NCBI GenBank assembly: GCA_019057475.1
Contig: DXJO01000019.1
Coordinates: 1-26,936 of the forward strand
DNA length: 26,936 bases
Origin: Candidatus Thorarchaeota archaeon
GTDB taxonomy: Archaea > Asgardarchaeota > Thorarchaeia > Thorarchaeales > Thorarchaeaceae
Direction of reading: 5' to 3'
In this document: piece after piece, positions 1-21,063 of the stretch
Layout of the letters: every line of letters begins with the position of its first letter
How positions within the stretch are numbered: the stretch's first letter is position 1
Made by a program: the position numbers and the translations under genes
Notes under the pieces: model-generated
Database searches by the model: none
Told to the model about the DNA's origin: nothing
The model's input: only the letters and a program-made list of their open reading frames with translations

Positions 1-227
1 GTAGAATCTGCAAAGCAGACCTCAATGAATCAGGAACCGAACATCAGTCAAGGACATTGATGTCCAGGATTGTGCAAGTTTCGGGCAACGGCTTTGCCCT
101 TGCTCCTATCCCTAGGATACCGATAGATAGGCTAATAAGCCAAACAGATGGGCGAGTGATAGAATCCCGGAACGCCATCCAAAACGCCCCAATTTGGGTC
201 GGGAAAGGGATCTAGGAGACCAAGACA

Positions 228-647
228 TTGGCAAGAACGAAAAAAGTCGGTAGTACAGGACGATATGGCGTTAGGTATGGGGCCAAACTACGGCGCAGAG
301 TTCTTGATATCGATAGGAAGCGTGCAGAGCCAGTGCGCTGTCCAGCGTGTGCCACCAAAGCTCTCAGGCGGGTGGCCGTTGGACTCTGGAGATGCAGAAA
401 GTGTGAGCTTCTCTTTGCTGGAGGAGCGTACGTTCCCTTCACAGACGCTGGGAAGGCCGCAAAGCGCGTTATAGCCCAAAGAGTTGCTGGTGACTTCCTT
501 GCTCTCAGAAGTGATGACGAGGAAGTTGTTCCGGAGTTCATGACACCTATCTCGAAAGAGATTGAGGAATCCGCAGAAGCCTCTCCAACTGAGGTGGATG
601 AAGGTCTCGAAACCGAAACTCCAGAGGTTTCTCCAGAAGAGGGCTAA
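228..647 (+). CDS. rpl37ae: 50S ribosomal protein L37Ae (eL43) with acidic C-terminal extension
   Basis: N-terminus KKVGSTGRYGVRYGAKLRRR, C4 zinc ribbon CPAC...WRCRKC and the FAGGAY motif; TTG start with GGAG upstream; position at the head of the Brix/pcc1/pfdB gene order. Confidence 0.96.
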   Translation: MARTKKVGSTGRYGVRYGAKLRRRVLDIDRKRAEPVRCPACATKALRRVAVGLWRCRKCELLFAGGAYVPFTDAGKAAKRVIAQRVAGDFLALRSDDEEVVPEFMTPISKEIEESAEASPTEVDEGLETETPEVSPEEG

Positions 648-670
648 GAGTAGACGCGAATCTCGTAATG

Positions 671-683
671 GGTTCCGTAACTG
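671..683 (+). repeat. 13-bp direct repeat, left copy (GGTTCCGTAACTG)
   Basis: Exact match to 9289-9301. Confidence 0.95.
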
Positions 684-712
684 CTTCAATGAACTTAGCC
701 AATCTTGGACAT
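684..712 (+). repeat. Left-end imperfect inverted repeat / putative TnpA-binding motif array
   Basis: CTTCAATGAA-CTTAGCCAATCTTGGACAT aligns to the reverse complement of 9259-9288 (GTTCATTGAAACTTGGACAAAGTTGGACAT) at 23 of 30 columns. CTT-initiated units fall at 684, 694 and 704 (10-bp period). Confidence 0.8.
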
Positions 713-718
713 TTATTA
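712..718 (+). promoter_or_regulatory. Possible TATA box for tnpA (leaderless)
   Basis: TTTATTA about 24 nt upstream of the ATG at 742, abutting the left-end motif array. Confidence 0.35.
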
Positions 719-741
719 GGTGACTATTGAAGTAAAGACCT

Positions 742-1330
742 ATGTTCTCAGTATCACAGGTTGCTCTCAGACTTGGTGTGTGTTCAAAGACCTTTAGACA
801 GTGGGACAAGAAAGGTCACATCAAGTGCTTGCGTACTCCAGGCGGACACCGGAGGATACCACTATCCGAGGTCAATAGACTCCTTGGTAAGTTGCACAGA
901 CAACTCATTGAAGGCCCATTTCGAAAACAGTGCGCGGTCTATGCACGAGCTTCAGACCATCGTCAGAAGACTGATGGTGCTCTTGATAGACAACTCAAGG
1001 TCCTTACTCAGGAATGCAAAAAACGCTACAGGACCAGTCCTTTAGTCTTCACTGACATTGGCTCAGGACTCAACATGCGGCGGAGGGGACTCAAGAAACT
1101 CCTTACATTGGCACAGAGAACAACTGTCAGTACTCTCATCATCACACATAAGGACAGACTAACCCGGTTCGGTCTAGAACTCATAGAACGTATACTCGAA
1201 GACTACGGTGTCAGACTTGAAGCCCCTATCAACCTGAACAGCAGAGTCCACAGGAGGAACTTGTCACTGATATGATGCACTCCTCGCATCCTTCTCTAGT
1301 AGGATCTATGGATTCCGATCGGGACAGACA
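742..1330 (+). pseudogene. tnpA: IS607-family serine transposase TnpA with two frameshifts near the 3' end (true pseudogene or sequencing error); 3' limit approximate
   Basis: N-terminal MerR-like wHTH (VALRLGVCSKTFRQWDKKGHIKCLRTPGGHRR) and serine recombinase motifs YARAS, DIGSGLN and THKDRLTRFG. The in-frame ORF stops at 1275. The canonical C-terminus continues in shifted frames: QQSPQEELVTDMM (frame from 1227), then ALLASFSSRIYGFRS (from 1277). Confidence 0.9.
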
Positions 1331-1343
1331 AAGATGACACAGG

Positions 1344-4300
1344 TCATTGCTCATAAAATCTCACTCCTCGCTCCTCTAGCTGCACCTTGATATCATCAGT
1401 GATCTCTTCTATAACGTCCTCATCAATATCGTATTGAGTGAGCATGCTATGTACTTCTTCTTCAATTATTGTGGGTTCAATTCCTCCTGATAATTTAGTC
1501 CAGTCAAGATAGTGGTGTATCCATCCTGTCACCTTCACGTCCATACGGCTTCCGTTATCTGACACAAGAATAGCTACTATTACTTGACCTCCCGACCCAT
1601 CTCTTTGTATACTCAAGCCCTCATATTGGAACCTTACAGGCCCTTGTTCCTCAATGAGCTCAATATACTCTCCTATCTCTTCTTGGACTAGACTCTGCAT
1701 CCTCTCATTTCCCTCAAGGTCTAGCTCACTGAGTAAGACTTCCATCCCCTTCCAGAGTAGCTCTTCTAGCTTCTCAGGTTGCATTTGCTCTGCCCTACTC
1801 TGTACCATCTCGTGTTTCCTCATCTCTCCAGTTACTTGCGACAACATCCTGAACTCCACCTTGTCCAGATGGAGCTTTATTTCAGGTGTCCACTCCTCAA
1901 GGATGTACGTCCCTGGGAACACTGGTTCATCTATCACTACCTGTCCTCTGCGACGTATCTGCATTAAGTGGATGCTCTCCCTGAACTCCCTTGGAAGACT
2001 CTTCGTGTCAGGAGTGTCGAACTCATGAACCACCCACTGTTGGTCGGGCGACTGATACATGAAACACCCAGTCAACAGAATGGCTGCCAGTTCTGGACCG
2101 CCCATCCGGAACTCCTCTATCATCTTATAACTCACAGGAATTGGGTTGTCATCGACCAACTCTACTCTCCAGCAGGTCCCATGTCTGTACATCGACTCGT
2201 TCAGGAGGGGATCAGGTTGACCTTTTGAACCATCAATGCGTTCCAGATACTCCTCGACATCACTCTTAGCCTTCTGACCTCTCTTCTCCAGTTCCTCAAT
2301 GGGGACACTCCTGAGCGGGCAGACAGAGGGGTCATGGTGGACACTGAGCCTGAGTCCGGTCAGTATTTCTGCCTGTAGGAATTGCTCTGCAGTTGGTGGT
2401 AGTCCCATCGTGGTGAACTTGAACGGACTCTTCCTCTCTACCCATGGTCTGAAGACCGTTGCATCACCCTTGTACTCGATGTCACTGAACCTGTTCCATG
2501 CAAACCGTCGTCCATTCACAACGACAGGTTCACACTCATAGTCAGGTCTGTGGAGCAGCTCCAGCGCATCCACAGTCCTCTTCACGAGTAGACGGACTGT
2601 TTCACCATTATCATCCAGTATCTCCTTGTCATCCTTATGAAACGTGAGCACATACATCTGTTCCTCTCTGTCAACTGATACATGACACTCCACGGACTCA
2701 CAGTTTCTGAATACTGCATTGATGAGCTCCAGTGACAGGTCGACACGTTCTCTCAGGTCAGAGGGAGGGCTACGTACATCAGTCATATCGATTGAGATGA
2801 AATTGCGTTCCTCTCTCAGAGTGTACGACCTGAGAAGTGTCACAGGCTCTCTTCGTCTTGTGAAGTACTCTAACCGTCCAACTGGTGTCCAGCTCTCACT
2901 GCCAGGTTCAAGGATCCACAGTCCAGTGAGTCCGCGTTGTTCTGCGACCATGATGGGGGTCCTGTCCGAGAGCCTAGATGCTGTGGCACACTCGCTTAGC
3001 TTTGTGAGGTCGGTTTCTCCCCAGTGAGGCCTGTCACGGAACAGCTCTTGAAGCATTTTGAGTGGTCCCTTCAGAGAGTCTTCGTGTACAGGAACAAGAG
3101 TGGCATTCATCTCATGGCTCCCAGATCGGTTCTGAAATATTAACCAAATTCCCATGGTGTCGATGGTCGGTTCCGATGTTTCGACACACTCACGTCTGAC
3201 CAAGACCATCTCTCCAAACCTGACATTACTGGCGTGTCTTGTATTTCCAGTGAGGATTCCAAGTGCTCTAGCCCTGTTGCGAAGACTCTGGAGGAGCTTT
3301 GTCCTGTGAAGGATGGACTCCCCGGTCTTGTGTGCGTCGTGGTACTTGGGAGTGAAACCGAGTCCCGTCAGCTGCCATGGAACAACATAGTCCCAGATCT
3401 CCTGTATTGCGTGTGTCATCCTCCCCACAATCTTTGCTGACCGGACCGCAGCGAGCAGAAGCAGAAACAGATGGTTCCCGGTTATCATAAGGATGTCCGG
3501 ATGACGCCGCAACAACTGTTCGACATACTGTCGTTGATGATAATTCAGACTGGGTGGTATCCATGACCGGACCTTTCGCAGTGTGTTCCAGAGACCTCTG
3601 CTCAAGGCATCAAGCTCGAGGAAACGCCGGATCGCACGCAACGAGTTCATCGCGTCCTGAGAGCTCTCACCACGCGTTCCTCTCACGCTCACAAGTATCT
3701 CTCTAAGGTCATCAAGGAATTCACTCCATTCCTTTGACTCCAATTTGTTTCTCCTGAGAAAGCTCAGTGCCTGTCCAATCTCAGCGAGCTCATTCCTTGC
3801 AATTGTAAGGTCATCACAGCCATCCACCACCATCAGCGCTTCGTGGGGCGGCCTCGTGTTGACCTTCAGATGGTCGACACCTAGACGTGTGGTCCGGTAT
3901 TCGCGTCGATGGTTGATATGGTGCATCGGTTCGAGACGCTTGACCCTGCCATCTGTCCTCAACTCTGTTCTGAACTGGTACGGAGTGAGTGTCAACCGAG
4001 AAGAGAGTGGTGATGGAGAGTCCGGAGTGTCAGGAAGAGGTGACCTGTGTGTCTTGACCTCTTTGGCATCGAGGCTGTCCAGCATTGGCGCGCAGATATG
4101 TGGTAGGAGTTCGAGCGCTGTATCGATGTCATCCTCCCCATAGGTGGTAAGGGGTCGGCCTCTGGTACCACCAGAACCTGTAGTCTTGTGGTAGATCTTC
4201 TGTCTTGGTTCATCTTGTTTCTTCTTGCCCTCATCCGACCGGAATCTCTCACCCCATTCTCGAAGGACATCGATCACTACCAACTTGGTCTCGACATCGT

Positions 4301-6812
4301 TCGGACTCTCAATCACTATCATTCGGACATCATCGTCAGCGGGGGCGTAGGCCCCGAAGCGTGGTGGTGGCATCGGTGTGTTCCACACTATCTCATCTAC
4401 ATAGTGCATCCACGGACTGCCTGTGTAGAAGGGTCCGACACAACGAGTGTCGTATCTCTGACTGGTAGCACTGAGCGGCACTGGGCGCCCGAACCACACC
4501 AATTTGGAGTCCTTTGGAACATCATCAAGGAACTGTATCAGGAACTCGTCTAGGACATCAGTCAGGTGCGCAGGTGTACTCTTTCGGACCATGTCCCATC
4601 CAGTGACAATGATGAATGGTCTGTGAGCCTGGCTCATGACGGAACGAGTTGACTTAGTCACATCACTGATTGAGTTTCTGTCATGGATGTATGCACGAAG
4701 GACGGATGACACATTAACGAACCGGACTCGTCTCTTGACGAATCGCTGTATTGACGACGAGTGTGACTTGAGTCTGAGTCGTGTTGCTCGGAGTACAGGG
4801 TCTGAGTATTCGCCGGTGAGGTCAAACCAGACAACATCCCTGTGCTTTCCTCGCACAAGTTGATGGACATACTGCAGACCATGCCACTTGGCTGCGACTC
4901 TCGCGGCTGACTCTGCTGGTGAGCCCTTTCCCGCCACAGACAGATACAAGGTGAACTTGCGGTCATCTCTCCTCTTTCTCCGGTAGCGGAACGAGTCGAA
5001 ATGTTCGAGTCGCTGTAATGGGGTTTCAACTGTGTCGTCTGCACCCTCAGAGAACACCACCAACCCCATGTGAAGCGACCGGTCCTCCGGCTGGAGCAGT
5101 TCCCTGTCAGCGATGCGTCCCTGTTGCGTCTTCCTGTATGCATCAATGACAAGTGACGGTAGATGTTCCCGTATCTCCTCCCAGTTCTCCTTTGAGTCCA
5201 CCACAAGGACTGCCTGTATCAGGTCATCAGGGGGGGAGTCGTCAGCACGTGCTATCCTCCGATAGTCTGAGATCAGAGCAGCAGTGTATGCACTGAGCTG
5301 CCTCTTCTCGTATCTCGACGGTGTTCCAGCGATGACTCTCTCCCACTCATCGTCTGTCATCTTACGTCGGTCAAGGACAGGCTCAACGACTCTGACAGTC
5401 AGGTCTGAAGACCTTGTGCCTACAGCATACAGGTCTAGGTTGAATGAGCTCCTTGTCTTGATCTCGATCACCATGCATGGTTCCCAGACCACTGTGTCCG
5501 GGGAGTCGTCAGCGTGAGGGAGGGTCTTCCTTCTGAAGAGCACGAGATCAACGCGACCTGTGCCATCTGCAACCGACACCTCGGCTATCAGAAGTAGTCC
5601 CGAAGTATCTGGTGCCATGGTGTCCCCATAGCGGATTGGACCGTACATGGTGAAGGGCGCTCGTGTTGAGTCGGCATGAGAGATGAAGTCGTGGAGAGCG
5701 ACACCCATTCTGCGGCTCTCCTCGTTAGCTAGCTGTAGTATGTGTTCCGCATCTCTATGTGTCAGAGTCCCATTCTCAACAAGGTCTTTGACAAACTCGA
5801 TATGGATCTTCCAGTCTGGGAGTAACTCTGTCTGACACTTGTCGACAATACGGAGGATGAGACCCTTGTAATCTTCAGACTCGTAACTGGGAACTGTACC
5901 CTCATCATCAGTCTTGTTCTCATCGATTGCGGGTACATCAAAGTGGATGAGTTCATCGTCGTCAACACACGCATCGCTCAAGCTTTGGGTCATCTCTGAG
6001 TCTTGCGTTGTTTCTGTATTGTCCATACTCTGCGAAATAGTCGATGTAATAGACTGGGAGCGCCCATTCCGTTTCCCGAACTGAGTACGTATCCTAAGTA
6101 CGATCTCTCTCAGTTCCTTTGCTCCATCAGGTGTGAAGTGTGCTCGGCCAGAGCGTCTATCAGTATAGACATAGTCCAAGAAGGGTGTCAGTCTGTCTAT
6201 GAGTTCGTCGATATATCTCTTAGCTGCACGTTGAGGAAGGCCATACTTCAGACACTGTCTGCATAGTTCAATCAGGTGACTTCGAATCATGTCTGCGAAG
6301 TCTAGCTCGGGCATGGAGTGTGTTGGGATGTATTCCGGGTCACGAGAGCTTCCAGGGTAACCAAAGACCATAGATCCATCCTGATTCACAATCCGTCGAA
6401 CACCAGGGAACGGGTATCGTTCCATGGCAACATCACGCAGTCTGCTTCCAGCATAGTCCCATAACTGGTTGAGATACCTCCTGTTCTCCCCTCTCCTCTT
6501 TCGCTTCACCTCAGTGTTACCATATCTTACTGAGGTCTTCAGCATGATCTTCTGAAAGTTGCGACGGATGTTGTTCTCGACATCTTGCAGTACTGTGGCT
6601 TTTGGCGACTTTTCCTGAACAGTCTTGTAGTACTCCCTTTTAGCATCATCCCAAATCCTTCGCATACCTTTCCTGCCATTGCCTCCTCCGTAGAGAGGAT
6701 AGGTTTTGTCTGTAACCCTTTCGCGTGCAAGGACCAGTGTAGCCGAGAGTCCAAGCTTAAGTCCCCTTGTCAGCACTCTTCCGGGCTTTCTCGGAGGCGT
6801 AGGAATTGGCAT
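1344..6812 (-). CDS. Large hypothetical protein (1822 aa) with a PD-(D/E)XK nuclease domain and a degenerate P-loop-like region
   Basis: 5.5-kb uninterrupted ORF with its own BRE-TATA promoter. Nuclease motifs AEVSV..GRVDLV...VIEIKT...RQLSAY. P-loop-like motifs LSVAGKGS, VVWFDLTGEY and FIIVTGWD. Confidence 0.8.
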   Translation of the reverse strand: MPIPTPPRKPGRVLTRGLKLGLSATLVLARERVTDKTYPLYGGGNGRKGMRRIWDDAKREYYKTVQEKSPKATVLQDVENNIRRNFQKIMLKTSVRYGNTEVKRKRRGENRRYLNQLWDYAGSRLRDVAMERYPFPGVRRIVNQDGSMVFGYPGSSRDPEYIPTHSMPELDFADMIRSHLIELCRQCLKYGLPQRAAKRYIDELIDRLTPFLDYVYTDRRSGRAHFTPDGAKELREIVLRIRTQFGKRNGRSQSITSTISQSMDNTETTQDSEMTQSLSDACVDDDELIHFDVPAIDENKTDDEGTVPSYESEDYKGLILRIVDKCQTELLPDWKIHIEFVKDLVENGTLTHRDAEHILQLANEESRRMGVALHDFISHADSTRAPFTMYGPIRYGDTMAPDTSGLLLIAEVSVADGTGRVDLVLFRRKTLPHADDSPDTVVWEPCMVIEIKTRSSFNLDLYAVGTRSSDLTVRVVEPVLDRRKMTDDEWERVIAGTPSRYEKRQLSAYTAALISDYRRIARADDSPPDDLIQAVLVVDSKENWEEIREHLPSLVIDAYRKTQQGRIADRELLQPEDRSLHMGLVVFSEGADDTVETPLQRLEHFDSFRYRRKRRDDRKFTLYLSVAGKGSPAESAARVAAKWHGLQYVHQLVRGKHRDVVWFDLTGEYSDPVLRATRLRLKSHSSSIQRFVKRRVRFVNVSSVLRAYIHDRNSISDVTKSTRSVMSQAHRPFIIVTGWDMVRKSTPAHLTDVLDEFLIQFLDDVPKDSKLVWFGRPVPLSATSQRYDTRCVGPFYTGSPWMHYVDEIVWNTPMPPPRFGAYAPADDDVRMIVIESPNDVETKLVVIDVLREWGERFRSDEGKKKQDEPRQKIYHKTTGSGGTRGRPLTTYGEDDIDTALELLPHICAPMLDSLDAKEVKTHRSPLPDTPDSPSPLSSRLTLTPYQFRTELRTDGRVKRLEPMHHINHRREYRTTRLGVDHLKVNTRPPHEALMVVDGCDDLTIARNELAEIGQALSFLRRNKLESKEWSEFLDDLREILVSVRGTRGESSQDAMNSLRAIRRFLELDALSRGLWNTLRKVRSWIPPSLNYHQRQYVEQLLRRHPDILMITGNHLFLLLLAAVRSAKIVGRMTHAIQEIWDYVVPWQLTGLGFTPKYHDAHKTGESILHRTKLLQSLRNRARALGILTGNTRHASNVRFGEMVLVRRECVETSEPTIDTMGIWLIFQNRSGSHEMNATLVPVHEDSLKGPLKMLQELFRDRPHWGETDLTKLSECATASRLSDRTPIMVAEQRGLTGLWILEPGSESWTPVGRLEYFTRRREPVTLLRSYTLREERNFISIDMTDVRSPPSDLRERVDLSLELINAVFRNCESVECHVSVDREEQMYVLTFHKDDKEILDDNGETVRLLVKRTVDALELLHRPDYECEPVVVNGRRFAWNRFSDIEYKGDATVFRPWVERKSPFKFTTMGLPPTAEQFLQAEILTGLRLSVHHDPSVCPLRSVPIEELEKRGQKAKSDVEEYLERIDGSKGQPDPLLNESMYRHGTCWRVELVDDNPIPVSYKMIEEFRMGGPELAAILLTGCFMYQSPDQQWVVHEFDTPDTKSLPREFRESIHLMQIRRRGQVVIDEPVFPGTYILEEWTPEIKLHLDKVEFRMLSQVTGEMRKHEMVQSRAEQMQPEKLEELLWKGMEVLLSELDLEGNERMQSLVQEEIGEYIELIEEQGPVRFQYEGLSIQRDGSGGQVIVAILVSDNGSRMDVKVTGWIHHYLDWTKLSGGIEPTIIEEEVHSMLTQYDIDEDVIEEITDDIKVQLEERGVRFYEQ

Positions 6813-6836
6813 TTCTACCAGATATATTCATAGTTA

Positions 6837-6852
6837 TTTATATACTTTTTCG
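6837..6852 (-). promoter_or_regulatory. Archaeal BRE + TATA promoter for the 1822-aa gene (leaderless)
   Basis: The minus strand reads CGAAAAAG-TATATAAA, with the TATA box ending 25 nt before the ATG at 6812. Confidence 0.75.
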
Positions 6853-6937
6853 GGTTAGGTCTGAAAGCAATTCATCCATTTAAACCCCTTCTGTCAGACA
6901 ATCACACATTTCCGACAACACTTTAATCTAATCTTGT

Positions 6938-7071
6938 TAATATTATATCGGTGTTTATAAGGATAAACCCATCATAAGACTCTGAGGAAGGACATTGACA
7001 CAAGAAATCCAGCGCCGTCCCTGGAAGCAGTACAAGCAGCATAAGACAATGGATGGTAATATTATATCGGT
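6938..7071 (+). repeat. 15-bp exact direct repeat TAATATTATATCGGT (6938-6952 and 7057-7071)
   Basis: Two identical copies 119 bp apart around the tnpB 5' region. Confidence 0.85.
6954..6960 (+). promoter_or_regulatory. Putative TATA box for tnpB
   Basis: TTTATAA in the AT-rich divergent intergenic region, 35 nt before the TTG at 6995, with an RBS-like GAGGAAGG at 6984-6991. Confidence 0.5.
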
Positions 7072-9286
7072 TGGATCTCGAAGACCCCACCAGTATCTTG
7101 TGGAGTCCTTTGCACTCAACTCCTACCACAGAAAGGTGTCAAGGAAGGGTAAAGGGAGAGTACCAGACCCCCAATTCAGAAAGAGGGCAGTGAGCCAGGT
7201 ACAGACTCTCTCAAGGACTGCTACTGGTCGGAAGTGTGGTTTCGTTGATCTCAAGACACTCACAGACCACTTTCAAAGATATTGTAAAGCAGTCAACCTT
7301 ATCCTTGAGCAAGTGTACTCCAATGACAAACACTCTGAGGAGATTGGTGAGAGACTGAGGAAGAGCAGGTCACGTGGTTATGTCGTACTGATGAAGGAAC
7401 ACGACCTCAAGTGGGCCAAGGACAACGAGTTCGGTGAGCTGGTCTTCGGAAGGATGCATAGGAATGCTCTTGAGGCTGCTGCTCGGATAATCCTCGCTGA
7501 CCACACAAGGAGGAAACTCGTTAGGACACTCGTGAATATACTTGTAGAGTCAGAGGATGACTTGAAAAGACTCATGAAGAACAAACGAGTCCCAGCTGAC
7601 CTCATCAGACGCGTCCGTGACCAGTCTGAAACAAAGCATAATGGGTCCGGTTTCTATTACGCTCTATCTGCATGCAAACAAGTCCGGCGAGTCCTTGACG
7701 AACTTGTTCTCTCGAAGATACCGAAACCCCCTGTTGAAAGGCAGGCCTCCGTTCATCATAATGGGCATGCCTCTATTTCAGAAGACAGACTTGCCTCTGT
7801 TTCTGCAGAGAGAACCGACTCACCACTGCCGAACGACCAAGCACCCAGAAAGCAACGCATTCGCGGAGGGCGCAGAGCAAGACAGAGAGCGAAAGTCAGG
7901 GAGTCATGGAAGGACAAGTCCAAGAATTCTGAGAGTATCAAAGACCTCATTCGCTCTGAGGTCACTCGTTGGAGCAAGGAGGGCTTTCCATTCACGACGC
8001 CTGTTTTTAAGGCAACCACTGAGGACTTCAGCGCGAGCACAGAGAACATGACTGGTCAAGGTTATTGGGTTAGGTCTGACCCTGAACGACCTGACGAGAT
8101 CATCCTCTACATCAAGACCCCACCCGGTCTACAGAGTGCTGAATGTGATTCAGACTCACCCTATCGGAGTCAGACACTCCGTTTCAGGTTCCTGAACTGG
8201 TTCCCTAGGAAGGCCAAGAGAGCGCAAAAAAAGGCGGAAGAGGCAAGAGCGGCTGGGAACATTTCTAGGGCAGAGCAACTGACTTTCAGGGTTGCCGTCT
8301 TCACAGACATGAGCGAGCAGTTGATGAACACCATTGCACTGCACCATGTCGCGCGAGAACTGACAAACCTCAAGGCACGGAAAGACCTAGACACAGAAAG
8401 AATTGTGGAGCTTGAGGGACAACTCAAGAAACTGCGAACATCTCGAAGGTCTGCTCCCCCACGACTCCAGCTCCGAGGGAACAGAGTCATCTTCTCAATA
8501 CCGTTCCTGTCACCAGATAAGAAACTACTTGAGAAGACACTTGAGACCCCTGAACTCACAGCCTATGCAGGGGTTGATAGGGGGATACGCTTTCCAGTGG
8601 TGTTGTCAGTCTGTGATGAATATGGCACATATCACGACAGACACATCAGTCACAAAGGGTTGTTCGCAAAGCGAGAACGACTCAGACATAGGACCAGAGA
8701 ACTCAGTTCACAGATAGACAGAAGAAAGAACAACTGGGAGAAGAAGCACCCGGGGCTGCAGGCACCAGCCTATATCCTGAAAAAGGAGATGGAGCTGGCA
8801 TCCGTGTGGCGAAAGGTCAGACGCCTCGACCGCGAGATCTCCCATCTAGTCGCATCTGCGACGGTCTGGTTCTGTGAGAAGCATAGGGTGAAGACTGTCT
8901 ACTTCGAGGACCTCCGTTCCTTCCAAGGGAAGGGCGGGATGCACTCACACAGCTGGAGATTATCGACAAACCTTTGGGGACTCATGATTGAGGGAGTCAG
9001 GTATCGAAGACAGGCCATGGGTCACAGGAGAGGTGGTGTCTGGACAGTGAACCCCGCGTGGACCTCACAGACCTGCAGTCGATGTGGAGAGAGAGGTGTC
9101 CGTGTGAAGCGCCCCGATGACACAGAGGAGATGAGAGGAGGAGAGCATTTCTTCTGTCCTCACTGTCAGATAAGCCTGCACGCCGACGTTAACGCGGCGC
9201 GTAACATTATTAAAGTAAAGCACGAGGCCAGTGCCGTTCCTGGCCGGACAGGACAGCGATGTCCAACTTTGTCCAAGTTTCAATGA
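6995..9286 (+). CDS. tnpB: Large TnpB/Cas12-like RNA-guided endonuclease (763 aa; 698 aa if the GTG at 7190 is used)
   Basis: RuvC-I AGVDRG, RuvC-II VYFEDL, VNPAWTSQTCSRCG...FFCPHC zinc finger and RuvC-III HADVNAARNI. All three acidic catalytic residues are present. Confidence 0.92.
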   Translation: MTQEIQRRPWKQYKQHKTMDGNIISVGSRRPHQYLVESFALNSYHRKVSRKGKGRVPDPQFRKRAVSQVQTLSRTATGRKCGFVDLKTLTDHFQRYCKAVNLILEQVYSNDKHSEEIGERLRKSRSRGYVVLMKEHDLKWAKDNEFGELVFGRMHRNALEAAARIILADHTRRKLVRTLVNILVESEDDLKRLMKNKRVPADLIRRVRDQSETKHNGSGFYYALSACKQVRRVLDELVLSKIPKPPVERQASVHHNGHASISEDRLASVSAERTDSPLPNDQAPRKQRIRGGRRARQRAKVRESWKDKSKNSESIKDLIRSEVTRWSKEGFPFTTPVFKATTEDFSASTENMTGQGYWVRSDPERPDEIILYIKTPPGLQSAECDSDSPYRSQTLRFRFLNWFPRKAKRAQKKAEEARAAGNISRAEQLTFRVAVFTDMSEQLMNTIALHHVARELTNLKARKDLDTERIVELEGQLKKLRTSRRSAPPRLQLRGNRVIFSIPFLSPDKKLLEKTLETPELTAYAGVDRGIRFPVVLSVCDEYGTYHDRHISHKGLFAKRERLRHRTRELSSQIDRRKNNWEKKHPGLQAPAYILKKEMELASVWRKVRRLDREISHLVASATVWFCEKHRVKTVYFEDLRSFQGKGGMHSHSWRLSTNLWGLMIEGVRYRRQAMGHRRGGVWTVNPAWTSQTCSRCGERGVRVKRPDDTEEMRGGEHFFCPHCQISLHADVNAARNIIKVKHEASAVPGRTGQRCPTLSKFQ

Positions 9287-9288
9287 AC
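9259..9288 (-). repeat. Right-end imperfect inverted repeat / TnpA-binding motif array
   Basis: TGTCCAA tandem at 9260 and 9270 (10-bp period) followed by TTCAATGAAC; inverted partner of 684-712. Confidence 0.8.
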
Positions 9289-9301
9289 GGTTCCGTAACT
9301 G
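9289..9301 (+). repeat. 13-bp direct repeat, right copy (GGTTCCGTAACTG)
   Basis: Exact match to 671-683. Confidence 0.95.
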
Positions 9302-9312
9302 AGGGAACCTTG

Positions 9313-9867
9313 ATGCCATCTATCCTAATCACAACTTCTCGACGGACATCTAACAGAGTTCGCTCTTTTGTACGCGACCTCTGGACTGTGCTCCCCGGCA
9401 CTGAGCGATTCAACCGCGGCGGAATGAGCATAGCCGAACTTTCGTCACGAATCAAGCAGTCGAGAGCAAGTGCTGCCATTATAGTGTCGCTTTTCAAGGG
9501 GAATCCGAGGAGTCTGCAGATATTATCCCCAGATGGAGGGCAACTAATGGAGGTGCAGATGGAGAGTGCCAAGCTTCGCCGCGAGGTGGCTTCCTCACGC
9601 GGTCCGAAAATGCGTGCTATCCATTCGATAGCCGTCCAGAGTGGAGCTGGTGAACAGACCAGAGCAATCGCTGAAATGCTGAGCGCGCTCTTAGATACAC
9701 CTATTGCTGAATCAACGGAAATTGTGGCTGTTGGATCAGAAGGCATGAACGAGGTTGTAGTGTGGCTTCAGGACTTCCCAACCGGCAAAACTCTCTGGAC
9801 ACATTATCATGCAAAAGATGGTCTTGAGATCGGGCCAAGGATGAGGATCACCTCGGTTACCGTGTAG
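9313..9867 (+). CDS. Brix-domain (Imp4-like) ribosome biogenesis protein
   Basis: ILITTSRRTSNRVRSFVRDL...FNRGGMS...GNP...EIGPRMRI. Start moved to the ATG at 9313 (GAGGG RBS) because the upstream in-frame part lies inside the transposon end. Confidence 0.9.
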   Translation: MPSILITTSRRTSNRVRSFVRDLWTVLPGTERFNRGGMSIAELSSRIKQSRASAAIIVSLFKGNPRSLQILSPDGGQLMEVQMESAKLRREVASSRGPKMRAIHSIAVQSGAGEQTRAIAEMLSALLDTPIAESTEIVAVGSEGMNEVVVWLQDFPTGKTLWTHYHAKDGLEIGPRMRITSVTV

Positions 9868-9988
9868 TTCTTTGTCAGCTCATTGCAGAACAGAAAGCGC
9901 CATAGCATTGGGAACAAGAGAACTCGTTTCGAAGTCCTTTTACGAGGATGGTCACCAAGAACAGCTATTAACACAGAGTGTGGAAACC

Positions 9989-10270
9989 ATGACCTCAAAG
10001 CCAATTCAGAGTGCAAGTGCAACGCTTTCCATTGATTTGGAATCGGACGAATTGGCCAAAATGATACAATCTGCTCTCTTACCAGAAATCGACGCATCTC
10101 CCACAGACAGGTGCGCAGCCAGCATTTCAGTTGAGGGGGCTACCCTAATCATCGAACTTACAGCAGGAGACCTCACCGCCTTGAGGGCTGCAATGAACTC
10201 CTATCTGGCGTGGGTGTCTGGCTGTAAGATGGCTGTGGAATCCGTGACTGATACAAGCCAAAACCCTTAA
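9989..10270 (+). CDS. pcc1: KEOPS complex subunit Pcc1
   Basis: ALLPE...LIIELTAGDLTALRAAMNSYLAWV motif and position between Brix and pfdB; likely start is the ATG at 9989. Confidence 0.9.
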   Translation: MTSKPIQSASATLSIDLESDELAKMIQSALLPEIDASPTDRCAASISVEGATLIIELTAGDLTALRAAMNSYLAWVSGCKMAVESVTDTSQNP

Positions 10271-10329
10271 GTCGTGACTCATCAGGCGCACTTTGAAACG
10301 CCCCGCACTTGTAAGGGAGTTCGACAATC

Positions 10330-10692
10330 ATGGCTCAGACATTACCCCCCGCCTTGGAACAGGACCTGCGAAAATTCGATACCATGCAGCGTAACTATGA
10401 AATGATGGCTGCGAAATTGCAGACATGGCAGATGGAATTGAATCAGATTAAAGTAACTCTTGAAGAGCTAAACAAGCAGCCTGATGATGTTGTGACCTAC
10501 AAGAGTGTCGGGCAAATCCTGTTCAAGGTTGACAAGCCCACAACAGCCAAGGAGCTTGCAGATCGAGAAGAAGTTCTCGAGAAGACACTGAAATCCATGA
10601 ATAAGAAAGTAGAATCACTCGCAGCTAGTCTGAAGGAGCTTCAGGAGAAGATACAGCTCGAGCTTAGCAAACAGAATCTCAGGCTCCAGTGA
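10330..10692 (+). CDS. pfdB: Prefoldin subunit beta
   Basis: 120 aa, coiled coil - YKSVGQILFK hairpin - coiled coil; conserved synteny. Confidence 0.93.
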   Translation: MAQTLPPALEQDLRKFDTMQRNYEMMAAKLQTWQMELNQIKVTLEELNKQPDDVVTYKSVGQILFKVDKPTTAKELADREEVLEKTLKSMNKKVESLAASLKELQEKIQLELSKQNLRLQ

Positions 10693-15353: not shown

Positions 15354-17381
15354 GTGAAGGTTGACGTTTTCAAAGCAATGACAATCAAGCTGTCCTCCGA
15401 CCTTCCCCCTGACCCAGTCTTTGACCCCCAATACCGAAGGGCTCCGAATCGAGGTCTAGATTTGACTGAAAGGGAAATAGTTGTGGCTCTGAAGAATGCG
15501 CTCCGGTACATCCCTGAGAGTCTGCATGAAACGCTAGCCCCGGAGTTTCTTAAAGAACTGATAACTCGAGGAAGGATCTATGGATACCGCTACCGGCCTC
15601 CAGGTACAATCAAGGCGAAGCCGGTTGACGAGTACAAAGGTATTCTTGAGGCAAGAGCGCTTCAGCTTATGATTGACAACAATTTAGACTTCGATGTAGC
15701 CCTCTACCCCTACGATCTCGTGACCTACGGCGAGAATGGACAGGTCTGTCAGAACTGGATGCAATACAGGTTGATCAAGAAGTACTTGGAAGCAATGACT
15801 GAGGACCAAACATTAGTTGTCAGCTCTGGGCATCCCGTAGGCCTCTTTCCATCGCATAGGAATGCACCTCGTGTGATATCGACCAATGGCCTCATGGTTG
15901 GCATGTTCGACACTCCTCAGGGTTTTCATCGCGCAGCAGCGATGGGGAATACAAATTATGGCCAGATGACGGCTGGTGGCTGGATGTACATTGGTCCTCA
16001 AGGTATCGTTCACGGAACATACATCACACTGTTGAATGCAGGCCGACTATACCTCGACCTACCAGACGATGAGGACTTGCACGGCAAGGTTTTCCTCACA
16101 TCAGGCCTTGGGGGCATGAGTGGAGCACAGCCGAAAGCAGTTGAGCTTGCTGGGGGGATCGGAATAATCGCAGAGGTTGACAAGAGCCGCATAATTACTC
16201 GAAACGAACAGGGGTGGCTCAGCAAACGCTCTGACAACCTGCCTGAGCTCTTTGAATGGGTTGAAGAGTACCGCGCGAAGAAAGAGCCGGTTTCAATTGG
16301 CTACCACGGCAATATTGTTGATCTCTGGCAATACGTTGTGGACAATGCCATCTCCATTGAGCTAGCGTCAGATCAGACCTCTTGTCACGATGTCTATGGT
16401 GGTGGATACACGCCTCAAGGAGTCACGTTCGAGGAGGGCAGAGAGCTTCTCAAGAGTAATCGAAAACGATTCAACGAGCTGGTAGATGCATCCCTCCGCA
16501 AGCAGTTCGAACTCATCTGCACCATGACCGAGCGCGGCACGTACTTCTGGGACTATGGAAACAGCTTCATGAAAGCAGTCTTCGATGCAGGCGAAAAAAC
16601 CATTGCAAAGAATGGCGAAAACACGAATGATGGATTCATCTTCCCTTCATACGTGGAAGACATCATGGGCCCAATTTGCTTCGACTGCGGCTACGGTCCA
16701 TTTCGTTGGGTCTGTCTGAGTGGGTTACACGAGGACTTGATTGCGACCGACAAAGCTGCAATGTCGCAAATAGACCCCACGCGTAGAGGCCAGGATCGTG
16801 ACAATTACATATGGATTCGAGATGCGGAGAAGAACGCCCTAGTAGTTGGTTCTCAAGCCAGAATCCTGTATGCAGATGCGGAGGGGCGGGTCAAAGTAGC
16901 GCTCGAGTTCAACAAGATGGTGAAGGAAGGCAAAGTGGGCCCGATAATGCTAGGTCGTGATCATCACGATACTGGAGGCACCGATTCGCCATTCAGAGAA
17001 ACTGCTAATATTATGGACGGCAGCAATGTCACCAGTGATATGGCTCATCAGTGTTGGGCCGGAAATGCGGCGCGAGGGATGACGCTGTGTGTCCTATCAA
17101 ATGGCGGTGGGGTTGGCACCGGAAAGGCAATCAATGGTGGTTTTGGCTTGGTTCTCGACGGCAGTGACCGTGTAGACAATATAATCCGACTAGCGGTGGA
17201 CTGGGATGCAATGGGTGGAGTCGCGCGTCGTGCTTGGGCAAGAAACGAGAACGCTGTTGAAACAGTGATTGAGTGGAATAGGACTTTAAGCGGCAGAGGG
17301 CAAATCACTCTGCCATTTACTCCCGAAGATGGACTGGTGGAAGGATTCGTTAGAGCGGCGCTTGAAAAAAGGAAGGGATGA
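15354..17381 (+). CDS. hutU: Urocanate hydratase (long form)
   Basis: YGQMTAGGWMYIGPQGIVHGT, GLGGMSGAQ, SDQTSCH and GRDHHD...DSPFRET motifs. Confidence 0.97.
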   Translation: MKVDVFKAMTIKLSSDLPPDPVFDPQYRRAPNRGLDLTEREIVVALKNALRYIPESLHETLAPEFLKELITRGRIYGYRYRPPGTIKAKPVDEYKGILEARALQLMIDNNLDFDVALYPYDLVTYGENGQVCQNWMQYRLIKKYLEAMTEDQTLVVSSGHPVGLFPSHRNAPRVISTNGLMVGMFDTPQGFHRAAAMGNTNYGQMTAGGWMYIGPQGIVHGTYITLLNAGRLYLDLPDDEDLHGKVFLTSGLGGMSGAQPKAVELAGGIGIIAEVDKSRIITRNEQGWLSKRSDNLPELFEWVEEYRAKKEPVSIGYHGNIVDLWQYVVDNAISIELASDQTSCHDVYGGGYTPQGVTFEEGRELLKSNRKRFNELVDASLRKQFELICTMTERGTYFWDYGNSFMKAVFDAGEKTIAKNGENTNDGFIFPSYVEDIMGPICFDCGYGPFRWVCLSGLHEDLIATDKAAMSQIDPTRRGQDRDNYIWIRDAEKNALVVGSQARILYADAEGRVKVALEFNKMVKEGKVGPIMLGRDHHDTGGTDSPFRETANIMDGSNVTSDMAHQCWAGNAARGMTLCVLSNGGGVGTGKAINGGFGLVLDGSDRVDNIIRLAVDWDAMGGVARRAWARNENAVETVIEWNRTLSGRGQITLPFTPEDGLVEGFVRAALEKRKG

Positions 17382-18919
17382 ATACCATGGTTGTTGAGGT
17401 TGATGGCGAGAGCCTGACAATTGAAGACGTGATTCTAGTCGCACGTCATAATGAACAGGCTGAGCTTGCCGAGTCTGCACGCAAGAAAATCCACAAGAGT
17501 CGCAATGTTGTGGAATCCGCGATAAGCGCCGGTCGGACGGTATACGGCGTAAACACTGGCTTCGGCAGTCTTGCCAATGTTTCGATAAGCGCGGATGACG
17601 TGGCTAAGCTCCAAGTGAACATCATCAGGAGTCACAGTGCAGGAGTAGGGCCTCCATTCTCCAAGGAGGTTGTGAGGGCAATTATGCTCTTACGTGCAAA
17701 CGCTCTCGCCAAAGGATACTCGGGCGTTCGGATAGAGATCATAGAGACCCTACTTCAGATGCTCAACCGAGGAGTGATTCCAGTCGTTCCTCAGCAAGGC
17801 TCTGTCGGTGCAAGTGGCGACCTTGCTCCTCTTGCCCACATGGTCTTGGTCATGATGGGTGAAGGTACGGCCTACTATGGTGATGATATGGGCGATGGGA
17901 AGACAGCACTAATGGTGGCTGGCATTGACCCCATTACACTTCAAGCAAAGGAAGGTGTCGCTCTAATCAATGGCACTCAACCAATGACAGCAGTTGGTCT
18001 TCTTGCTATTCATGATGCGATGATGCTTGTCCATGACGCATCCGTAGCAGCTGCTATGAGCCTAGAATCTCTCAAGGGAACCCGTGTGGCCTTTGACGAG
18101 AGAGTTCACGCGGTACGAGCGCATGAGGGGCAACAGGACGTTGCAAAGGCATTGAGGGCGATTCTCAAGGACAGCGAAATCAATCAATCCCATGCGGACT
18201 GCGGCAAGGTTCAGGATGCATATTCGCTGAGGTGTATCCCTCAAATCCTGGGCGCATCACTAGACACCATCAGGTATGTTCGGAGCATTCTGGAAACGGA
18301 AATCAATTCCGCAACTGACAATCCATTGGTTTTTCCAGAGGGTGGCGATATCCTCTCAGGAGGCAATTTTCACGGGCAGCCAATAGCGCTGGCTATGGAC
18401 TTTCTTACGATAGCCCTATCTGAGATTGGCAATGTATCAGAAAGGAGAATCAATAGGCTAGTGGACCCAAAACTCAGTGGCTTGCCCCCATTCCTGACAA
18501 AGGAAAGTGGGCTCGAGTCCGGAATGATGATAGCCCAGTACACAGCGGCCGCACTAGCTTCTGAGAACAAGAGCCTATCTCATCCAGCGAGCGTTGATTC
18601 GATACCGACAAGTGCTGGGCAGGAAGATCACGTTAGTATGGGTACGATTGCAGCACGAAAAGCAATGATGGTCCTTGAGAATGTGAAAAATATCATTGCA
18701 ATCGAATACATGTGTGCAGCACAGGGACTTGATCTCTTATCACCGCTGAAGCCATCCGATTCTCTTGCTAGGGCACACGATGCCATAAGAGAAAGAGTGC
18801 CCGTTCTTGAAGATGATAGGGAGCTCAGTTCTGACATCATGCAAATCCGCGAACTCATGGACTCGGGGGACATCGTGTCTGCCGTCGAGGCGGTCGCAGG
18901 CAGCCTCTTTGATGATTAG
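17378..18919 (+). CDS. hutH: Histidine ammonia-lyase
   Basis: MIO-forming GSVGASGDL, YGVNTGFG, RSHSAG, QDAYSLRC, GGNFHG and QEDHVSMG; ATGA overlap with hutU. Confidence 0.97.
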   Translation: MNTMVVEVDGESLTIEDVILVARHNEQAELAESARKKIHKSRNVVESAISAGRTVYGVNTGFGSLANVSISADDVAKLQVNIIRSHSAGVGPPFSKEVVRAIMLLRANALAKGYSGVRIEIIETLLQMLNRGVIPVVPQQGSVGASGDLAPLAHMVLVMMGEGTAYYGDDMGDGKTALMVAGIDPITLQAKEGVALINGTQPMTAVGLLAIHDAMMLVHDASVAAAMSLESLKGTRVAFDERVHAVRAHEGQQDVAKALRAILKDSEINQSHADCGKVQDAYSLRCIPQILGASLDTIRYVRSILETEINSATDNPLVFPEGGDILSGGNFHGQPIALAMDFLTIALSEIGNVSERRINRLVDPKLSGLPPFLTKESGLESGMMIAQYTAAALASENKSLSHPASVDSIPTSAGQEDHVSMGTIAARKAMMVLENVKNIIAIEYMCAAQGLDLLSPLKPSDSLARAHDAIRERVPVLEDDRELSSDIMQIRELMDSGDIVSAVEAVAGSLFDD

Positions 18920-19018
18920 CTTCTCCGGCATCATGATGGAAATAAGTATGAAAAACACTCCAAAGAAAAGCCAGATTCTCTTCCAAGTATTTTCTGGAAG
19001 TACTTCAAACACCTGATT

Positions 19019-19662
19019 CTATATCTTTGGAAGAAACATCCCAACTTCCTGCCGATACCTGACGTATTCCTCCCCAAACTGTTCAATCAGTACTTCCTCC
19101 TCAGCTTTGGCTGTTGGGTATATCCCAAAAGCAATGCAAAGAGATGGAATGAGTATCCATCCAATGTGAAGAACACCCGCGAGGCCAATCGTAATGAGGA
19201 AGTACGACACATACAGGGGATGTCGGATTACTGCGAAAGGGCCACTTTTGACCAGCTTATGGTCCCCAGCATGCCTGACGTCGAGGGGCGCAGATAATTC
19301 CCTGCAACTATCAGGGTCATATCATATGTCAGGGCACCAACAAAAAATACACAGAACCCCGCAACTTGGATGGCTAGATTATAGGGGGTTGTAAACGCAA
19401 GCCAGCCAAACAAGGTGTCATAGGAGCCCAGAGCCAGAGATAAGATTCCTCCAACCCAAAATCCCCACATGCAAAAGTAGCCAAATACAAACACCTGATA
19501 GAATGGAAATCGGTATTTGGCCTTCTTAGTAGGTTGGCTGGTTCTTCGATTTCTCCTAAACTCAGACCAGTGTCTGATAGATGGAAACATCATAATGACA
19601 ATCGGAATAGCTAGCAAAACTGCTGAGAACGCTGGAGGTAGCATTGCACTCGTGATATTCAT
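19019..19662 (-). pseudogene. Isoprenylcysteine carboxyl methyltransferase / PEMT-family membrane protein with one frameshift
   Basis: Two ORF pieces join via a 1-nt shift in the C4 run at 19264-19267, restoring DHKLVKSGPFAVIRHPLYVSY...AEEEVLIEQFGEEYVRYRQEVGMFLP. Confidence 0.85.
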
Positions 19663-19785
19663 TACACAGCGGTCTAATAAAATCTCAGGCTAACATAACT
19701 TCAATAATCACGACTAGCTTTATTGAGCGGCTTCGGAATCGAAATAGTGCGGATGACTCTTATTGCCTACAGAGCAATAGATCTA

Positions 19786-21063
19786 CTAGGGACCCAGCTT
19801 GGTGTGCACAACTTGACCATTTGCGATGACCGTATGAACAAGATTGACGCCGAACCTCCAAGTCAGGAATTCGGGGCTGGGACACTCGAGAACCAAGATA
19901 TCTGCCCTCTTGCCGGGCTCCAAGCTACCAATCTCATGTCCATTGTCTAAGGCATGTGCCCCGTTTATGGTCGTTGCAGAGATGGCTTCTCTGGCTGTCA
20001 TCTTCATCTTGTAGGTAGCTAGGGCAATTGTGAAGAATAGCGATTCATTTGCACAGTTTGGATTGAAGTCAGTGGCCAGAGCCACGGGAAGTCCCATCTC
20101 TATCATGTGGCGAGCACGAGCATATACAGTGTTTAGACTGAATGCAGTAGCGGGAAGTAAGGTGGCAATTGTACCGGCTTTCAACATGGCTTCAAGCCCC
20201 TCATCCGAAGCCATCAAGAGATGGTCTGCGGAGACCGCGCCGACCTCAGCAGCAAGTTCCGCACCACCCAGTTGTACAATCTCGTCCGCATGCACTTTGA
20301 GTTTCATTCCGGCTTCCTTGGCAGCCAGCAGAATCCTCCGCGATTGCTCAATATCAAAGACTCCTTTCTCACAGAAGACATCACAGAACTCCGCAATCCC
20401 TAGTTCTGTTACAGCAGGTATCATTTCATCGATGACAACGTTTACGTAATCATCTGTCTTTCCCTCGTACTCTGGAGGAACTGCATGAGCCCCTAGGAAT
20501 GTTCTGATGATTCCCATGGGCAAGCGGTCACTGAGGTCTCCCGCAGCTTGAAGCATCTTCACTTCATCATCACGATTTAGCCCGTAGCCGCTCTTGGCCT
20601 CCACAGTTGTAGTTCCGCTAGCAAGCATGCTCTCTCCGTAGGTGAATGCAGCGTGGCATAGATCTTCTCTGCTAGCCTGGCGCGTTGCCTTGAGAGTATT
20701 CAGGATGCCGCCCTCAGCCTCAAGAATCTCCATGTAGGTCTTGCCTGCGAGCTTCATAGCGAAGTCATTCTCGCGAGACCCCCCAAATATCAAGTGTGTG
20801 TGACTGTCGACCAGACCGGGCATGGCGAACATGCCTGGGAATTCAATCGCGGGCAGAACTGGCTCCTCGTCAATTTGGGAGATGACATCCTTGGTGGTGC
20901 CAACAGCCAGTATCGTGCCATCCTTGATAGCAATGGCGCCGTTCTCTATTATGGCTAGGTTTCCAAGATCATCGCCCGTCTTGGGATGGTCGCTGTTTCC
21001 AGCCAATGTGGCCAGCTGACCAATGTGGGTTAGTAGCATATCCGGCTTCATTGTGTGCCACAC
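19786..21063 (-). CDS. hutI: Imidazolonepropionase
   Basis: PGLVDSHTH, EAKSGYGL, DVFCEKG, HADE, ADHL and ATDFNP motifs; the start may be the ATG 4 codons in. Confidence 0.96.
   Translation of the reverse strand: MWHTMKPDMLLTHIGQLATLAGNSDHPKTGDDLGNLAIIENGAIAIKDGTILAVGTTKDVISQIDEEPVLPAIEFPGMFAMPGLVDSHTHLIFGGSRENDFAMKLAGKTYMEILEAEGGILNTLKATRQASREDLCHAAFTYGESMLASGTTTVEAKSGYGLNRDDEVKMLQAAGDLSDRLPMGIIRTFLGAHAVPPEYEGKTDDYVNVVIDEMIPAVTELGIAEFCDVFCEKGVFDIEQSRRILLAAKEAGMKLKVHADEIVQLGGAELAAEVGAVSADHLLMASDEGLEAMLKAGTIATLLPATAFSLNTVYARARHMIEMGLPVALATDFNPNCANESLFFTIALATYKMKMTAREAISATTINGAHALDNGHEIGSLEPGKRADILVLECPSPEFLTWRFGVNLVHTVIANGQVVHTKLGP

Follow-up and report, generated by a model that had tools for sequence, protein, structure and literature searches.

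An IS607-type transposon of Thorarchaeota with a giant aCas1 gene and a large tnpB

IS607 transposition makes no target duplication, unlike a subset of the elements described here, among them an 8,618-bp insert that splits rpl37ae from a Brix-domain gene in a Candidatus Thorarchaeota archaeon. What is this insert, and how did it acquire a 13-bp duplication of its target? The sequence analysed, hereafter the window, is the whole of contig DXJO01000019.1 (26,936 nucleotides; assembly GCA_019057475.1), which corresponds to contig C53 of a 3.3-Mb Thorarchaeota host genome (G000) assembled from a metagenome. From left to right, the insert comprises a tnpA gene of the IS607 family, a giant gene on the opposite strand and a large tnpB gene (Table 1). 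It is a real mobile element of Thorarchaeota (Asgard archaea), and its giant gene is the aCas1 of the published Asgard aCas1-TnpB loci (PMC10691335). The explanation that we favour, at slightly better than even confidence, is an IS607-type transposon with an aCas1/large-TnpB module, in which TnpA moves the element, homing repair triggered by TnpB leaves the duplication, and aCas1 probably aids the repair.

The insert between rpl37ae and the Brix-domain gene

The insert is bounded by an exact 13-bp repeat (671-683 and 9289-9301) that has no further copy across the 3.3-Mb genome. Its deletion in silico leaves a 47-nt spacer between rpl37ae and the Brix gene, and in congener G005 the Brix gene (92% identical) likewise starts 47 nt past rpl37ae. 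The empty allele with a single repeat copy was found in four congeners (G001, G004, G005 and G006), and a contig joint from 670 to 9289, skipping exactly 8,618 bases, was present in two independent metagenome runs. As a true target duplication, the repeat has replaced the start of the left end: the first 11 nt past the left GG are target sequence, at a position where the near-identical copies L092, L093 and L179 read TTTCAAACAG or TTGCAAACAG. A preliminary description of the window had placed co-oriented tnpA and tnpB at opposite ends around an opposite-strand gene of 5.5 kb, had defined ends whose removal rejoins rpl37ae to Brix, and had suggested a search for the empty site in relatives. The gene calls agree with this layout, the repeat and the 47-nt spacer bear out the ends, and the empty alleles supply the site that was sought.

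Misassembly, a doubt raised in that description itself, is unlikely because a single 17.3-kb Logan contig, probably from the source run, covers 44-10500 with zero differences and a Joint Genome Institute contig is 100% identical across 10,794 bp. We give next to no credence to the wider reading that the locus is misassembled or that three unrelated mobile genes became neighbours by chance; the metagenomic origin and the frameshifted tnpA would fit it, but it is opposed by the spanning contig, the identical second assembly, the clean empty alleles and the recurrence of the layout in 19 loci. Among the contig joints examined, which were drawn from contigs only, there was no circle junction, nor did the source run show a joint of the empty-site kind.

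IS607 features and the predicted omega-RNA

The TnpA protein is a serine transposase with an N-terminal helix-turn-helix (HTH) and scored 141.7 bits against the NCBIfam IS607-transposase model NF033518 (cut-off 110), so that its earlier assignment to an IS607-like family stood. What had gone unnoticed are two 1-bp deletions relative to its relatives, after 1225 and after 1276. These frameshifts cut off the helix-E region, which is therefore lost, with a remnant extending to ~1390; this copy cannot encode full-length TnpA. The helix-E region is needed by the TnpA of IS1535 for efficient end pairing (PMC6188088). A full-length tnpA open reading frame was present in eight related three-gene loci.

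The ends also follow the IS607 pattern. In comparisons with empty sites, the element proved to terminate in GG on either side and to target (G)GG. The left end reads G/GG-T-nnnn-AACAG-CT...TTGGACA and the right end carries TGTCCAA twice, followed by CAATGAAC/GG (the slash marks the junction); almost all right ends are AACGG and almost all left ends GGG. The short subterminal motifs (695 and 705 on the left, 9260 and 9270 on the right) lie about one helical turn farther from the core on the left than on the right and are, by analogy with studied elements (PMC6188088), putative TnpA binding sites. Comparison of L021, L022 and L030 with their empty sites placed the crossover at GG(T) and showed no duplicated bases, and GG crossover without duplication has been published for IS607 (PMC6188088) and for an IS607 element of C. 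botulinum (10.1101/2023.11.20.567912). The element thus resembles the IS607 family (IS607, IS1535 and ISC1926; PMC6188088) in its HTH-bearing serine transposase, (G)GG target, terminal GG at both ends, differently spaced subterminal motifs and non-autonomous derivatives. In contrast to the family, in which tnpA adjoins a canonical tnpB within ~2 kb, it measures 8.6 kb, a 5.5-kb gene separates tnpA from tnpB, and its TnpB (~700-770 aa) reached 36 bits against an IS607_TnpB cut-off of 350. It further departs from the family in the 13-bp duplication, which is single in the empty allele; ~8 of the 27 giant-bearing copies depart in this way, while most other copies duplicate nothing.

The same ends were found in derivatives without the giant gene, without tnpA, or reduced to miniature inverted-repeat transposable elements (MITEs). 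The host genome contains ~13 MITEs of 185-188 bp, each of which carries both ends of the large-TnpB family as well as the omega-RNA hairpin, with no duplication. That TnpA moves the element at GG is well supported by the ends, the MITEs and the literature.

The final 65 nt ahead of the right GG contain a hairpin with compensatory changes, a result equalled in 0 of 500 shuffles. The loop of the hairpin at 9226-9245 is able to pair with the terminal AACGG (9286-9290); in four elements the terminus is AACGA instead (GG to GA), and there the loop carries a compensating C to T change. Conservation of the right end stops at GG(T), beyond which the flank is variable, and TnpB residues D528, E638 and D731 are invariant among relatives. 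An intact RuvC triad together with a structured RNA abutting a variable flank is the arrangement of OMEGA systems. Because of this structured right-end RNA and the intact TnpB residues, an omega-RNA that uses the right flank as its guide is likely, and each MITE could give TnpB a different guide in trans. A TnpB with an omega-RNA at the right end, terminating in CGG, is likewise a feature of the C. botulinum IS607 IStron (10.1101/2023.11.20.567912). The head-to-head geometry of the giant gene and tnpB makes divergent promoters in the gap between them probable.

At positions 1-91 the window opens with a right end (...TTTCGGGCAACGG) that belongs to a second family, one of IS607-type MITEs and conventional TnpB elements. 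The TTTCGGGCAACGG pattern occurs 37 times in this genome, in some cases by chance, and the second family shares its left-end consensus with the large-TnpB family.

The giant aCas1 protein and its TnpB partners

No useful match to the giant protein was obtained in Pfam, NCBIfam, PADLOC, PDB sequence searches or the ESM Atlas, and its domains were identified by structure prediction alone. AlphaFold models reached predicted local distance difference test values of 82 (residues 1-630) and 79. A Cas1 domain (aa 1-235) is followed by a Cas4/RecB-like nuclease (~350-590) and a degenerate RecA/Rad51-paralog fold (~615-850). The Cas1 domain aligned with Archaeoglobus fulgidus Cas1 at a VIA-align Z of 12.9 (root-mean-square deviation 3.9, 194 residues aligned), and the top 12 VIA-align matches were all Cas1 or casposase entries, one of which (2yzs) is titled just 'uncharacterized protein'. 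The nuclease domain gave Z ~7 to MGME1 and Cas4 with weak agreement from Foldseek, and residues ~615-850 gave Z ~12 to RecA/Rad51-paralog/KaiC folds with a degenerate P-loop. For the folded domains of the last ~950 aa the fold searches gave no assignment, since the RecA-like domain filled the results, and this does not point to a new fold. Residues E79, R83, N115, H165, D171, D174 and R177 were conserved in all 50 aligned true family members, as was the nuclease motif H374/E411/D422/[ED]450/K452/Q505/Y509. The D-x-x-D-x-x-R spacing corresponds to that of the catalytic helix of Cas1. A complex prediction for TnpB with the Cas1 domain scored 0.28, the mark being 0.32.

Of the 85 genomes searched from the host's family, 48 contained giant-family genes, frequently more than one copy, whereas 115 more distant genomes yielded none; all organism-named homologs were from Thorarchaeota. 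A Cas1-like fold with catalytic residues, an adjacent TnpB and restriction to Asgard archaea among the genomes searched identify the giant as an aCas1. The aCas1-TnpB loci of Asgard archaea fall into two TnpB groups (Cas1H-Asgard-1 and -2), and aCas1 was proposed as a transposase that replaces Y1 or serine recombinases (Altae-Tran et al. 2023, PMC10691335). Neither the pairing of aCas1 with TnpB nor the occasional carriage of extra genes by serine-recombinase TnpB elements is therefore new to the literature (PMC10691335), and the preliminary description, which had taken the giant gene for cargo of a possibly undescribed family, has to be corrected on both points. The present loci share with the published ones the Cas1-like protein adjoining TnpB, the Asgard host and the two TnpB clades, and the small-TnpB clade also shares the GTTCACTCA motif. 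Unlike the published loci, the large-TnpB group has an IS607 TnpA and IS607 ends, with a right end that lacks GTTCACTCA; the accessible portion of PMC10691335 does not state this motif for both groups, and neither the Cas4-like and RecA-like domains nor two junction classes appear in it. Within the literature searched, which left out Makarova et al. 2020 and the PNAS supplement, no description turned up of a form borne by IS607, of its ends and MITEs, or of two classes of junction. The element goes unmentioned in the searched passages of Valentin-Alvarado 2024 and of a 2026 survey of archaeal insertion sequences. The aCas1 protein itself was reportedly described by Makarova et al. in the CRISPR Journal in 2020.

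Other known systems share some of these features. As in casposons and Cas4-Cas1 fusions, a Cas1 fold (Z 10.9 to casposase and 11.1 to a Cas4/Cas1 fusion) lies within a mobile element, and some copies have a target duplication. In contrast to these systems, there is no family B polymerase among the three genes and no long terminal inverted repeat reaching the junctions, the Cas1 lacks its beta domain, and the element lacks Cas2 and a CRISPR array. Ser-3-type serine-recombinase TnpB branches likewise carry, on rare occasions, extra genes in TnpA-S/TnpB elements, but in the part of PMC10691335 available these encode HTH, helicase or WhiA-like proteins rather than a Cas1 fusion.

The layout of tnpA, giant and tnpB, which the preliminary description had proposed to look for elsewhere, recurs at unrelated sites in several genera (g1, g3, g4, g5, g8, g10 and g11). 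Giant genes stand head-to-head with either a large TnpB (~700-770 aa) or a small TnpB (~545-625 aa), which form exactly two clades. A tnpA gene or its remnant adjoins 19 of 37 loci with giant and large TnpB, as against 0 of 41 with giant and small TnpB, in a set of loci partly fetched through tnpA matches. The published GTTCACTCA motif follows tnpB in the small-TnpB clade and is absent at the large-TnpB right end. On a quick tree of the N-terminal 600 aa of the giant, without an approximately unbiased test, the type of TnpB partner switches 11 times, with at least eight switches forced by well-supported branches. Because of these changes, the TnpB and giant modules appear to have been exchanged and the element to be a modular composite. 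One fixed three-gene lineage was rejected on the partner switches of this quick tree; of the distinct three-gene family postulated earlier, the recurring layout survives, while its partners swap and the giant also pairs with a tnpA-less small TnpB.

The partner switches bear on whether the giant merely rides along, or forms a selfish or defence-like unit of its own that swaps between TnpB elements, with no role in mobility, in which case the duplications would be by-products of host repair after TnpB cuts. This reading, which we regard as improbable, gains from the 11 changes of partner, the weak correlation of giant and TnpB identities (rho 0.35) and the arrival of giant-less tnpA-tnpB and tnpB-only derivatives at new sites (L021, L027, L046 and C42b), but it sits poorly with a giant that is nearly always head-to-head with TnpB across the family, and with three out of three recognisable domains being DNA-recombination folds whose catalytic residues are fully conserved.

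The aCas1-TnpB loci place a CRISPR integrase fold beside the ancestor of Cas12 without a CRISPR array. Since the large-TnpB group has an IS607 TnpA and IS607 ends, its aCas1 need not be its transposase, as far as can be judged from sequence comparison; one TnpB group with an ordinary IS607 transposase would mean that aCas1 is conserved for another task or as a second route. Tentatively, the giant could be specialised for integration or homing in concert with the RNA-guided TnpB. It would then open a second route of insertion, independent of TnpA, in which the right end is precise, the left end is free and ~9 bp of target are duplicated. If so, this would be a natural system of Cas1 and a Cas12 ancestor, free of CRISPR and nested in an IS607 transposon.

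Several variant loci were observed in the course of the comparison. In L025, L038, L037, L185 and some others, a separate Rad51/RadA-like ATPase gene comes after a giant-family gene; the two share the orientation of tnpB and have host-like genes in between, which suggests larger composite elements and a tie to homologous recombination. L078 (1822-6102) is a three-gene element with an inverted giant, co-oriented with tnpA. A tnpA-less subgroup of large-TnpB elements (L059, L081, L072, L068, L023, L074, L086 and the copy at C54:173900 of G000) has degenerate right ends; its right flanks resemble tRNA 5' ends, with a tRNA gene nearby. The small-TnpB elements L117, L122 and L160 have duplicated tRNA ends. 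In the small-TnpB elements L119, L135, L157 and L168, the published 'hypervariable region' before GTTCACTCA seems by eye to pair with sequence after the motif, and may belong to the omega-RNA scaffold as a stem rather than be a guide; the true end of small-TnpB elements seemingly lies ~20 nt farther, past a GGTYA motif.

Target duplications and candidate routes of insertion

In 5 of 24 elements with a giant and a large TnpB, a stretch of at least 9 nt of the right flank, beginning with the core, recurred exactly on the left side of the giant; matches of this length appeared in 2 of 552 cross-locus controls. Further duplications were found in L048 (11 nt, one mismatch) and in L031 and L180 (8 nt), longer imperfect ones in L039 (~35 bp) and L047 (157 bp), and single-copy empty alleles confirm those of the window, L036, L048, L040 and L024. 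Duplications of 8-13 bp occurred in ~8 of 27 giant-bearing elements and in none of 23 MITEs and giant-less derivatives (0/18 MITEs and 0/5 giant-less tnpA-tnpB derivatives; p = 0.005, for a grouping made post hoc in which kin are not independent). Small-TnpB elements showed 8-10-bp matches in 6 of 28 cases, compared with ~4.5% of controls, these being sequence matches only. A regular fixed 13-bp duplication for the family was discarded, most copies having none, as was a general resemblance of left end and target, which fell to chance level once the clear cases were removed (p = 0.63). A 10-nt match in L044 was likewise rejected as a duplication; it is ordinary tnpA coding sequence, also found in L177 and L178 with one difference.

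The duplications always begin with a GG or GA core that follows a G and equals the terminal dinucleotide of the element itself, which would be expected if TnpA or the TnpB motif chose the site. The left end is replaced in register in the window, L048 and L180 and truncated at varying points in the others. That of L036 falls within the apparent tnpA C-terminus, and L030, 94% identical at another site, has a normal left end. The right flanks of near-identical elements are unrelated, so that a shared guide does not choose new sites, and this idea was abandoned. The matching G-preceded core and the unrelated flanks are the reasons why the duplication is best read as a repair scar.

How such a scar would form can be outlined under the explanation we favour. 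TnpA, acting in cis or in trans, would carry out excision and insertion through a 2-bp crossover at (G)GG that duplicates nothing, and would mobilise tnpA-less copies and 187-bp MITEs as well. TnpB, directed by an omega-RNA that uses the right flank as guide, would cut the empty site beside a GGG-like motif, and the cut would drive copy-back from the occupied chromosome; we infer this recutting and copy-back from tested IS605/IS607 elements. In some repairs, the motif-proximal broken end would retain 6-11 nt of target and would join the left end, either in register (window, L048 and L180) or at an incomplete copy (L024, L036 and L040), giving an 8-13-bp duplication. Subsequent excision by TnpA would transport the scar along. 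Such joining, and the carriage of scars by later excision, would account for the hypervariability of the left end over its first 6-7 nt, and this target-derived stretch may be a record of TnpB homing that is legible in genomes. From its modelled domains, the giant protein would most plausibly resect, pair and join ends during homing, not excision.

The GG-only junctions of L021, L022 and L030, the duplication-free MITEs and a (G)GG target like that of IS607 and ISCbo speak for this explanation, and the window's copy combines a broken tnpA with a duplication scar. Several points weigh against it. No site was found in both intact-left-end and scarred forms; the narrow length mode (core plus 6-7 nt) fits an integrase with a fixed stagger equally well; other TnpBs cut at 15-21 nt, longer than the scar mode; small-TnpB elements, which have neither tnpA nor IS607 ends, also show 8-10-bp duplications that a prior TnpA insertion does not explain; and the giant's part is inferred from its domains.

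The length mode leads to the alternative of two transposases, in which aCas1 also integrates a fragment, with a precise right end, a variable left end, new GG sites and a stagger of ~9 bp, possibly positioned by motif binding of TnpB; the window's copy would have arrived by this route. We consider it rather unlikely, although much can be said for it: all 50 aligned giants keep the Cas1 triad and the nuclease motif unchanged, 8-13-bp duplications were seen just in giant-bearing elements and with both TnpB clades, including the tnpA-free small-TnpB elements, duplication-bearing copies lack an intact tnpA, and a transposase role for aCas1 has been proposed (Altae-Tran 2023, PMC10691335). What tells against it is that the duplication sites retain the (G)GG/GA signature and match the terminal dinucleotide of the element, that the lengths vary (8, 9, 11 and 13, also ~35 and 157 bp), that the tnpA-less giant-bearing elements L022, L030 and L033 have ordinary GG junctions, and that the Cas1 domain lacks the N-terminal dimerisation region.

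In G005, the family member L036 (3397-11690) lies 1 kb downstream of the equivalent site, where pcc1 ends; it occupies the opposite strand and shows a 9-bp duplication, and its empty site is positions 10260-10268 of the window. L047 (860-3410) is a tnpB-only copy, and the imperfect 157-bp target duplication flanks it.

Table 1 Positions of the element, its parts and its flanking genes in the window, and MITEs in the host genome G000
Feature	Position	Strand	Remarks
rpl37ae, host left flank	228-647	+	Pfam PF01780, E=1e-28; congener G005 has the same 139-aa protein
Left junction: G670, GG core (671-672) and 11 bp of target sequence (673-683)	670-683	+	In place of the usual first 10 nt, consensus TTGCAAACAG
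Conserved left end with two subterminal TTGGACA-type motifs (695, 705)	684-741	+	Common to related elements and MITEs
tnpA, IS607-family serine transposase	742-1275	+	NF033518 match; MerR-type HTH and resolvase
Giant aCas1 gene, 1,822 aa	1344-6812	-	AlphaFold 2 models, fold searches, invariant residues
Cas1-like catalytic alpha-helical domain (aa 1-235; E79, H165, D174)	6108-6812	-	Lacks the N-terminal beta domain of ordinary Cas1
AT-rich 182-bp gap, giant and tnpB head-to-head	6813-6994		GC 43-45%
Large tnpB, 763 aa, TTG start (family ~700-770 aa)	6995-9286	+	RuvC D528/E638/D731 intact; zinc finger
Predicted omega-RNA scaffold, 3' part	9226-9290	+	Covarying hairpin 9226-9245; two TGTCCAA motifs (9260, 9270); right GG core 9289-9290
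Right copy of 13-bp duplication	9289-9301	+	Predicted guide from 9291 onward (position inferred from IS607 TnpB work, 10.1101/2023.11.20.567912)
Brix-domain gene, host right flank	9313-9867	+	Weak Pfam Brix match, E=0.017
MITEs of G000	Contigs C7, C21, C23, C26, C27, C40, C42, C45, C51, C54		

Apart from the element, the C-terminus of rpl37ae encodes an acidic tail of ~50 aa (480-647) that is kept in congeners. Positions 15354-21063 hold an ordinary-looking cluster that resembles histidine utilisation (urocanase, aromatic amino-acid lyase and amidohydrolase). Positions 25819-26832 encode a 337-aa beta-propeller with weak matches to FG-GAP, BBS2, BBS7 and Itfg2, mostly at or near the cut-offs, which is possibly eukaryote-like.

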